From a virus: a stretch of DNA of 64,000 nt. Numbering within the stretch: the stretch's first letter is position 1; each line of letters begins with the position of its first letter. The notes under the pieces are model-generated. The model did no database searches, was not told the DNA's origin, and saw nothing but the letters and a program-made list of their open reading frames with translations. Shown one piece after another: positions 26,661 through 29,588 of this stretch. Made by a program: the position numbers and the translations under genes. The DNA lies in IMG/VR virus record IMGVR_UViG_3300020439_000004, positions 1 through 64,000 of that record; one strand, 5' to 3'.

Positions 26661-27374
26661 TTATTTCTTCTGGTTTTGTTGTTCCGATTCCGACTTTACC
26701 TTCACAACAAATCCCGAATTGTCGTGCTTGGCTTTGCCTTTTGCTTCTAGTCCGATTATTTTACCATGAGGATCAGTAAAACGCAAGTCATGATCGTCGC
26801 CACTGATTACTTCCATGCCCTCCCAAGTATTTGGAATCTCATCAAACACAACTGCAACATTACCGCCTTTTTTAATTACTTCTTTTATAAACTCAGTATC
26901 TGTCGTTTCGTCTCTGCTAAAAGTAAGATGATAGTTGTGGGGCATTTCATGAGAAAGAAACGCCATTATTCTTTCTTTGCTTTTAGTATAGTCATAGAAC
27001 TGATGTTTTGGGAACTCTTGCATGATGCCATATTTTTCCCAACGGATATCACTTGTTAAGTTTAAACGAAAACAAACGCTCATTTGTTTACGTGCCGCAA
27101 ACCTTATGCCCGCTTGAATGTCCTTCACTAACTGAAGCACAAACTCAAACTTATTCTCATAGAACTTATTTGTTTTGTTTATTCTAGCCTCTTGAACCAT
27201 TTTCATCATGCCCCGCCCTGCTGTATTTAAACAAGCTGCTGCACATCCTGCACTAGCATTAGGACAAACATTCCGCCCCGACAAAGTAGACGGTGCGAAG
27301 TGAAGACCGTAAGTGATAAAACCTTTTTGGAATCCTTTTAGGATTTTAGAATTGCTTAGTGTTAAGTATCTCAT
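26661..27374 (-). CDS. phage gp88-family protein
   Basis: NVCP.AS.GC...CLNTAGRG, RLNLTSD, FYDYTK, NYHLTFS, GD.HDLRF.DP, GL.AKGKAK. Confidence 0.8.
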   Translation of the reverse strand: MRYLTLSNSKILKGFQKGFITYGLHFAPSTLSGRNVCPNASAGCAAACLNTAGRGMMKMVQEARINKTNKFYENKFEFVLQLVKDIQAGIRFAARKQMSVCFRLNLTSDIRWEKYGIMQEFPKHQFYDYTKSKERIMAFLSHEMPHNYHLTFSRDETTDTEFIKEVIKKGGNVAVVFDEIPNTWEGMEVISGDDHDLRFTDPHGKIIGLEAKGKAKHDNSGFVVKVKSESEQQNQKK

Positions 27375-28715: not shown

Positions 28716-28878
28716 GCCCAACTATAACCGCAAAAAAGAAAATGTGCAAGCACTAAAAACAAAAAAAAGAAAAAAAATCGCTCCAACATTGCCCGATATT
28801 TAGTCAAATATTTACTTGACAAAAAAACTTTATTTTTTAGTTGACAAGGGATTACATAGTAAAAGAGTAGTAATGTGT

Positions 28879-28957
28879 GTAACTCGTTGAGTATCAACGA
28901 GTTAGGGCGGCGCGGCATACCGCCATCTTCGTAACTCGTTCAGGGTGAACGAGTTAT
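28879..28957. repeat. tripartite palindromic element copy 3 (inverted relative to the others)
   Basis: GTAACTCGTTG-AGTAT-CAACGAGTTAG / 25 bp / GTAACTCGTTC-AGGGT-GAACGAGTTAT; reverse complement of the spacer aligns with copies 1 and 2. Confidence 0.95.
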
Positions 28958-28974
28958 AGAGAAAGTTAACAGAA

Positions 28975-29255
28975 CAAAAAGAAACCGCCGATAGGACAAC
29001 AACTATGAAAACCTATCGACGGCTCCCCTACTGGCGGGAGCGCTCCGTTGGGGCTTGCCTCCAGTATTTAGGTTTGGGATTGTTTCTCACTCTCGGAGCT
29101 GGCGGTAAATCCCTTTATAACCATACCAATGTTTCATCGTCACTTACCTACAACTTTTGTGCTGTAGGAGGCTAAGTTTAGGAAAACAGCTTGTCCGTCA
29201 TGTCAGGACTGAGGTATCTATCAAAGACCTCACTGTGTCTAAACTCGGTGACTAT
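28975..29255 (-). ncRNA. candidate ~280-nt highly structured ncRNA ending in a terminator-like hairpin
   Basis: Nested helices with G-U pairs favouring the - strand; no convincing ORF. Confidence 0.6.
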
Positions 29256-29262
29256 ACCCTTC

Positions 29263-29481
29263 CTAGGATTGTTCTGCGTTTAACGCAAATTTTTCGTTTA
29301 ATGTATTAGCGTGTTTGCGTGTCCACTTTACATTATCAATGAAGTGGTCAAGTTTATCATCTGCCACCTCTGACATTCTTTCTGCCAAGGTCTGATGTAC
29401 TACACCAAGCGCATAATTTAAAAGCGTTGCTTGGTCTTTGTTTTTCACTTCAATGCGAACTGATTCGGATGTCTTTGCCAT
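29263..29481 (-). CDS. hypothetical protein
   Basis: 72 aa ORF between two structured elements. Confidence 0.65.
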   Translation of the reverse strand: MAKTSESVRIEVKNKDQATLLNYALGVVHQTLAERMSEVADDKLDHFIDNVKWTRKHANTLNEKFALNAEQS

Positions 29482-29521: not shown

Positions 29522-29588
29522 TGTAGGCTAGGGCGACGAGACCATGATCCCCTCAGAAAAAATCTCGCCACCCTTCACTATACCTACA
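29522..29588 (-). ncRNA. candidate intergenic RNA hairpin
   Basis: TGTAGG/CCTACA enclosing AGGGTGGCGAGA/TCTCGTCGCCCT (two G-U pairs on the - strand). Confidence 0.5.

Follow-up and report, generated by a model that had tools for sequence, protein, structure and literature searches.

A modular, structured 3'UTR RNA behind an early gene of an uncultured marine phage

In a tailed phage of an uncultured marine lineage, the early gene p72 is followed by a structured, modular 3'UTR of ~290 nt, which we consider a genuine RNA-level element (probability about 0.9). The window that we analysed is a stretch of 64,000 nucleotides, the first 64 kb of a 108,942-bp IMG/VR viral record. An earlier note on this DNA had proposed one multi-helix non-coding RNA of about 280 nt on the minus strand at 28975-29255, with a decoy, an anti-defence RNA or a ribozyme as candidate roles. 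The non-coding RNA stood up to analysis; the single 280-nt fold did not, and is replaced by four autonomous modules (A-D; Table 1) that have been gained, lost and re-grafted independently among relatives. The region was correctly placed, with the true 5' limit at 29262, immediately behind the stop codon. The RNA is conserved in many related phage contigs and, in this uncultured marine lineage, is better conserved than the neighbouring protein gene.

Table 1. Coordinates of p72, of the RNA with its modules, and of the helices (window positions)
Feature	Position	Strand	Description
p72	29263..29481	-	conserved 72-aa early gene, from the ORF list
Structured 3'UTR RNA	28975..29262	-	288 nt between the p72 stop codon and the intrinsic terminator
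Module A	29139..29259	-	invariant 5' GGGUA, then three-way junction P1/P2/P3
Sub-module a1	29193..29231	-	hairpins GAGGU/ACCUC and GUCC/GGAC grafted on the P2 tip
Linker GAUGAAAC and module B	29076..29138	-	30-nt near-invariant AUUGGUAUGGUUAUAAAGGGAUUUACCGCC, GGGAUU/AAUCCC, variable tip CUC/GAG
Module C	29029..29066	-	stem UACUGG/CCAGUA plus GG/CC, apical motif AAGCCCCAACGGAGCGCU
Module D	28975..29024	-	intrinsic terminator: 13-bp stem (two G-U), 16-nt loop, U-rich tail
GUCAC/GUGAC (P1)	29252-29248 with 29143-29139	-	encloses the next five helices
GAGUUUAG/CUAAACUU (P2)	29246-29239 with 29181-29174	-	
ACAGU/GCUGU (P2 extension)	29236-29232 with 29190-29186	-	
GAGGU/ACCUC	29231-29227 with 29215-29211	-	
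GUCC/GGAC	29209-29206 with 29196-29193	-	
CCUACAGC/GUUGUAGG (P3)	29168-29161 with 29154-29147	-	
GGGAUU/AAUCCC	29113-29108 with 29081-29076	-	
UACUGG/CCAGUA	29066-29061 with 29034-29029	-	
AGCCGUCGAUAGG/CCUAUCGGCGGUU (13 bp)	29024-29012 with 28995-28983	-	followed by UUCUUUUUG

The RNA is the 3'UTR of p72

The p72 ORF stops with UAG, and 288 nt without a conserved frame follow. Its ATG lies 5 nt past a TATAAC box, so the p72 mRNA looks leaderless. We found neither a Pfam nor a PHROG family for the protein, and an ESM Atlas search with p72 returned only its own viral cluster; a protein search detected relatives encoded at 23 viral loci, with 61-100% identity. The RNA region has a GC content of 47% against 35% for the genome.

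On the 3' side of the terminator lie two operator-like palindromes, promoters and a DUF932 gene (28721/28716-27891, minus strand; Pfam E = 3.5e-10; GC 53% against 35% for the genome). The likely ATG of the DUF932 gene (28716) is 6 nt past a TATAGT box, so this gene is leaderless, and the geometry of its start is the same in relatives, whose proteins begin MALIYA, MLIYA or MSLILA. The palindrome pair (28879-28958; TAACTCGTT..AACGAGTTA) flanks a GC-rich dyad, occupies the equivalent place in nearly all related loci and, in 56 of the 71 UTRs compared, follows the terminator. Its arms vary among phages yet remain palindromic, which suggests a conserved operator for an early-region regulator.

Two further features of the neighbourhood were recorded. 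A hairpin at 29531-29573 on the minus strand (11 bp, GGGUGGCGAGA/UCUCGUCGCCC, with a 21-nt loop and no U-run after it) lies ~16 nt past the stop of an upstream small ORF (29846-29589) and is another structured 3'UTR element of the same early region. Downstream of the DUF932 cassette, a 237-aa protein (26661-27374, minus strand) strongly matches Pfam GP88 (E = 9e-46) and PHROG 1617. Queries of GenBank phages with the RNA, the surrounding 12 kb, p72 and the UTRs of two relatives gave no match, and the large terminase is only ~25% identical to Bacillus phage terminases, so that neither a cultured relative nor a host can be named.

The stretch around the RNA was found in DNA and RNA runs of 13 studies, and contigs from marine RNA libraries cover the RNA itself. 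These contigs come from four runs in three studies and are assemblies, which carry no reliable ends, strand or level and may include DNA carry-over. Two of them, 29050-29262 and 29049-29244, are from one sample; another, from a strain variant, spans 29039-29237 and is accompanied by a separate ORF contig (29263-29467). In two runs the flanks were uncovered by RNA-library contigs, which can be read neither as enrichment nor as RNA ends. A contig from a sponge metatranscriptome (X18, 29233-29374) joins the end of the ORF and module A, so at least some molecules join ORF and UTR. Rather than a free-standing gene, the RNA is the 3'UTR of p72, ending at the p72 terminator.

The RNA is non-coding, as had been claimed: no reading frame persists on either strand across 13 relatives, which also speaks against a small protein-coding gene, and indels among relatives are of arbitrary length. 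Nor does it match a known RNA. With the 4227 models of Rfam 15, a set that includes riboswitches, ribozymes, RNase P, 6S, GOLLD, ROOL, pRNA and any xrRNA models among them, nothing reached gathering score in the window, and searches with 1001 nt or 301 nt returned nothing in the RNA region at E<=10; ARAGORN found no tRNA or tmRNA gene in the 64-kb window. Weak matches to ctRNA_pT181 and CrcZ at 28734-28852 (E 1.4 and 4.7) fall in the A/T-rich promoter region past the terminator and were taken as chance. Within the phage's own genome, the longest complementarity that could mark an antisense target is 13 nt, about what chance gives, and the seed with a complementary target expected of a base-pairing trans-acting sRNA was not found there.

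Folding confirms the helices, and its energy signal lies mostly in the terminator

All helices listed in the earlier note are present on the minus strand where it had placed them, and both minimum-free-energy and centroid folds recover them. On the minus strand the whole region folds at -91.6 kcal/mol (z = -3.44), and none of 200 shuffles was as stable; the plus strand reaches z = -2.19. Taken separately, module D stands out (z = -7.40, 0/200 shuffles as stable), against z = -1.85 for module A (11/200), z = -1.47 for the UACUGG hairpin of module C (15/200) and z = -0.37 for the GGGAUU hairpin region of module B (58/200). The excess over shuffles thus comes mainly from the terminator, so thermodynamics alone would not carry modules A-C, and the case for the upstream 230 nt rests on relatives.

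Related UTRs are mosaics of modules in a constant order

We collected relatives by two routes, through the p72 protein (the 23 viral loci) and through a 20-nt hairpin pattern (86 marine metagenome contigs). Together they give 71 distinct UTR versions downstream of a p72 homologue, all from uncultured marine phages. These UTRs are mosaics, in which the order of modules is constant and the subset differs from phage to phage. Module A, a domain with a three-way or four-way junction, is present in 37 of the 71 and absent from 34; module B occurs in 31 and module C in 46. At least eight further modules occur at the same locus and in the same order, among them M, between A and B, and J-E-F, between B and C. 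Terminators number one to four per UTR and fall into three types: D, present in 32 of the 71, G in 7 and K in 13. UTR length runs from 90 nt in L016, which has a terminator only, to more than 500 nt, while p72 and the DUF932 gene stay put, which makes the modules accessory to these two genes. They are no dispersed repeat or MITE-like element, each being single-copy in the 108,942-bp record, and a 91-kb relative holds one copy of the module C core.

The modules are more conserved than the adjacent p72 coding sequence. In L005, identity is 72% in the ORF against 96%, 94% and 95% in modules A, B and C, and in L091 it is 69% in the ORF against 98% in module B.

A tRNA gene stands directly behind the UTR in 4 of the 71 cases. 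In several relatives a tRNA gene follows the K-type terminator (L017:3474-3546 and L025:3474-3546, also L018, L019 and L022), scores 75-76 bits with the Rfam tRNA model and has the anticodon loop CAU. Across 15 related loci, Rfam returned only tRNA and short tmRNA-like matches, all outside the modules. The latter (L015:1200-1265 and L025:1493-1557) are ~65 nt long, lie just over gathering score and cover only the ends of the tmRNA model; they may represent a tRNA-like mini-element that these relatives carry ~1.5-1.8 kb upstream of p72.

Module A is a covarying three-way junction with invariant strands

The scaffold of module A reads GGGU(A), P1, a variable P2, (A)GCCC(C/U), P3 with the loop ACWAAA, an A-rich strand and P1'. 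In the window, the strand between P2 and P3 is AGCCU(C) and the conserved P3 loop is ACAAAA. We compared 21 close variants together with divergent versions. With the window structure imposed on 27 versions, 95.3% of cells were paired and nine pairs had changed on both sides, a level of covariation reached by none of 500 shuffles; sliding the partners by 1-3 columns lowered the pairing to 29-40%. RNAalifold, given the alignment as sole input, recovered P3, with four of its seven pairs compensatory. P3 occurs as at least six fully paired helices, and P1 as at least five, namely GUCAC/GUGAC, GCUGG/CCAGC, GGUUAG/CUAGCC, UUGGUUAG/CUAGCCAA and UAGCU/AGCUA.

P2 is missing from L081 and, at the other extreme, forms a branched arm, and grafts move between sites. 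Sub-module a1, which the window carries on the tip of P2, occupies the P3 loop of L008, lies beside a second graft in L030 and L115, and is absent in L010 and L023; its GUCC/GGAC stem becomes GCCC/GGGC in L083 and L114. In other phages the same graft sites are taken by a K-turn-like hairpin, a2, and by unit I, which also occurs free-standing on a different stem. The a2 hairpin (GGU-AAU-GA-C-UUCC-GAAA-GGAA-C-GA-GCC), on the P2 arm in L002, L020, L030, L073 and others and missing from the window copy, fits the K-turn consensus of a 3-nt bulge, tandem G-A pairs and a GNRA-capped stem.

The GGG at the 5' end is complementary, in crossing order, to CCC/CCU in the junction strand, and the two could form a pseudoknot; both are invariant in all 28 distinct module-A versions compared. 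We found no second, latch-like pairing in module A. The sole complement of the P3 loop ACAAAA is the U-tail of the terminator, which stays the same when the loop is ACUAAA, and this pairing was rejected for its lack of covariation. Long-range pairing of the module A 5' strand with the module B flank was likewise rejected: some UTRs carry B and lack A, and L067 has an uncompensated change.

This architecture raises the possibility, by analogy with flaviviruses, that module A halts a 5'-to-3' nuclease just past the stop codon and releases the downstream modules as a stable RNA. The position of the module directly after the stop codon, its covarying three-way junction, the crossing order of GGG and CCC, and the likeness of a modular, duplicated and shuffled 3'UTR to that of flaviviruses (PMC8374639) would all fit. 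So would the contig breaks seen at 29262/29263 in two studies, although these hint at it only weakly, as breaks are expected where strains diverge. We nevertheless regard such a block as improbable: GGG and CCC never vary, no latch was found and the P3 loop and U-tail do not covary, there is no Rfam match at all, and the module is missing from 34 of the 71 UTRs.

That the RNA is self-cleaving or otherwise catalytic is scarcely credible. A conserved junction with invariant unpaired nucleotides is all that could be cited in its favour, and nothing else here points to a ribozyme; the junction strands misfit the hammerhead core, no ribozyme family of Rfam appears even at E<=10, and the modules are dispensable and shuffled.

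Module B is almost invariant in sequence

Module B is an almost invariant 55-nt element. In most carriers it is 91-98% identical, where the p72 ORF is 69-86% identical at the nucleotide level, and it is also found without module A. Its stems never vary, so the covariation that supports module A, the module C stem and module D has no counterpart in B. Structurally this is the weak point of the RNA: what supports B is sequence conservation, most strikingly of its 30-nt stretch, which stays unchanged in phages whose p72 gene is down to 69-86% nucleotide identity. One conjecture for its fold is an H-type pseudoknot, in which GGUA would pair with UACC across GGGAUU/AAUCCC, a type invisible to folding tools.

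Three other candidates in B were rejected. An 11-nt tetraloop receptor (UAUGG/CCUAAA) is not conserved in relatives. A promoter (TATAAA) has no -35 box that is conserved, and contigs from RNA libraries cross it. A peptide of 16-18 aa, with AUGAAAC or AUGGUU as its beginning, keeps neither start nor stop in relatives, and its third codon positions are invariant.

Standing immediately upstream of the terminator and the DUF932 gene, the RNA might act as a regulatory leader, put-like or riboswitch-like, that governs read-through, antitermination or attenuation past D into the DUF932 cassette. Two observations on module B would also fit: the ACCGCC of its internal loop complements a GGCGGU that both D and G terminators have in their 3' half, and B is seen only with D or G terminators, never with K alone. 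However, the 6-nt complementarity is weak against a 13-bp local stem and shows no covariation, and the co-occurrence is confounded by relatedness. The DUF932 gene has its own promoter, operator sites and leaderless start, and tandem terminators argue for stopping rather than passing. We consider a leader function quite improbable.

Module C has an invariant cap, and module D is a terminator

The apical motif of module C, ~24 nt long, is invariant. Its cap, GG-A/C-AAGCCCCAACGGAGYGCU-A/C-CC, is essentially constant, with one divergent copy found, and the core, two or three variable positions aside, is the same in 71 flank contexts, on at least eight unrelated stems. In the 86 metagenome contigs this invariance is partly circular, as they were retrieved with an exact pattern; the protein-anchored loci show the same core. 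The stems are each paired (for example CUGG/CCAG, GAGAGG/CCUCUC, CGAGG/CCUCG, a 12-bp and a 14-bp stem), and the 12-bp stem doubles as the terminator of the gene upstream of p72. Flanks of C form a mean of 11.7 pairs, against 6.4 when left and right flanks are swapped between contexts.

Among 185,579 prokaryote genomes, the C core had a single match, inside a long ORF of a high-GC Acidobacteria MAG contig; we took it as chance and not as a host RNA that the phage mimics. A CsrA-type sponge of GGA motifs was also set aside, because about five GGA in 288 nt is roughly what chance gives and the variant C copy loses its GGA.

Module D is an intrinsic terminator, with a stem at -26 kcal/mol and the tail UUUCUUUUUG; a loop longer than 8 nt is the sole reason why a simple terminator scanner passed over it. 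Among relatives the stem shows covariation, from GAUAG/CUAUC to GGCAG/CUGUC (U-A to C-G, plus G-U changes), and hairpin insertions of 20-40 nt occur in the loop only. In some relatives two to four D-type terminator hairpins stand in tandem after C (L005:2362-2900 approx., L010 and L083), with differing loop inserts.

The main rival to a function in trans is a 3'UTR that works only in cis by stabilising p72 mRNA against 3' exonucleases, securing termination and insulating the next cassette, which consists of the operator palindromes and the DUF932 gene. The UTR does end in a strong terminator, and relatives have up to four in tandem; module C caps the terminator of another early gene in L043 and L047 and elsewhere lies, in sense orientation, 20-35 nt past the stop of a same-strand frame; and one of the RNA-library contigs runs from the ORF into module A. 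Simple stabilisers, however, need stems, not an invariant loop or junction of 20-30 nt that outconserves the coding region. A terminator has no need of a three-way junction that covaries and whose loop and junction strands are conserved, and L016, with its 90 nt, manages without modules A-C. We hold a purely cis-acting UTR to be possible and lean against it.

Pairing is maintained on the minus-strand transcript

The earlier note had remarked that the imperfect pairs are G-U on the minus strand and had called this consistent with selection at the RNA level. The relatives bear this out: summed over two alignments, 92 cells are G-U and 11 are A-C, so the pairing is kept on the minus-strand transcript and would break on the other strand.

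The same asymmetry weighs against a DNA-level feature without RNA function, such as a recombination hotspot, protein-binding DNA or mobile-element remnants. Such a feature could account for blocks gained and lost in a mosaic among relatives, and for the conservation of module B without a structural signal. It does not fit the compensatory changes, the confinement of insertions to loops, the single copy per genome, the consistent sense orientation past a same-strand stop or the presence in RNA libraries, and we judge it very improbable.

Discussion

For the role of this 3'UTR we tentatively favour, at somewhat under even odds, a stable early RNA that displays protein-docking loops and serves as a modular decoy or scaffold. 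The RNA would persist as a stable species, with module A guarding its 5' side and the terminator hairpin its 3' side; the sequence-invariant loops would be docking sites for host or phage proteins; the RNA would act early in infection; and cassettes might be exchanged by recombination as hosts change. Invariant loops carried on stems that are free to vary, and shuffled among phages, in our judgement fit protein recognition better than simple stabilisation, and accessory, fast-shuffling modules in an early region fit host-interaction functions. In proteins, exchangeable cassettes with invariant loops usually mark host interaction or counter-defence. If the loops are protein-docking sites, each cassette would be a ready bait for a partner. 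A more specific form of the idea, drawn by analogy, is a DNA-phage counterpart of sfRNA, in which a pseudoknotted module A would block 5'-end-dependent decay just past the stop codon and the terminator-capped 3'UTR would build up as a stable RNA. Every cassette (the C core, B, a1, the K-turn-like a2 and others) would then tie up its own host protein or defence sensor, and recombination would swap the cassettes as hosts change; we think this unlikely. Even on a modest reading, the comparisons lend good support to several RNA motifs that are new and suited to Rfam-type curation.

Several known systems share part of this design. As in intrinsic terminators generally, module D has a GC-rich 13-bp stem and a U-run, and C caps a terminator stem in relatives; unlike mere terminators, the RNA also carries modules A, B and C, which are unneeded for termination and have invariant loops. 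Bacterial sRNAs derived from 3'UTRs, such as CpxQ and SroC, share the terminator of their mRNA. The phage RNA likewise follows a stop codon and runs to the intrinsic terminator of its own transcript, and processing near the stop could release it, but it is much longer and multi-domain, with conserved loops and junctions rather than a single-stranded seed. GOLLD and ROOL are large structured RNAs of phages and prophages (structures in bioRxiv 10.1101/2024.12.08.627333), and phage T4 encodes the stable RNAs C and D in its tRNA cluster. The present RNA resembles these as a phage-borne structured RNA of unassigned function, with a tRNA right behind the locus in some relatives; it differs from GOLLD and ROOL in being much smaller, in having no Rfam match, in consisting of shuffled cassettes where those have one large conserved fold, and in being part of an mRNA.

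To our knowledge, roles have been established for few structured phage RNAs, and most of the known ones are from cultured phages. The IMG/VR catalogue of Fremin, Bhatt and Kyrpides (2023) lists 10,006 candidates, including tRNA-like structures, terminators and cis-regulatory elements (PMC10690425). It draws on the same source, IMG/VR contigs, and as far as its main-text outline goes it concerns the same kind of object and describes no modular 3'UTR like this one.

In overall plan the RNA resembles the 3'UTR and sfRNA of flaviviruses, with their xrRNA, dumbbell and terminal stem-loop modules (PMC8374639). Both are viral 3'UTRs that start right after a stop codon and are made up of autonomous structured modules, which relatives have duplicated, lost or altered. 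Flaviviruses are RNA viruses and this is a DNA phage, and the two have no sequence or covariance-model similarity. Class 1 xrRNAs are three-way junctions whose 5' end pairs into the junction, forming PK1 (PMC8374639). Module A, the first module here, is also a three-way junction supported by covariation, and its 5' flank could pair into the junction in a PK1-like manner; it differs in having no latch pairing that we could find and in being absent from 34 of the 71 UTRs. Should module A prove to block a nuclease, the xrRNA principle would extend to bacteria and to DNA viruses.
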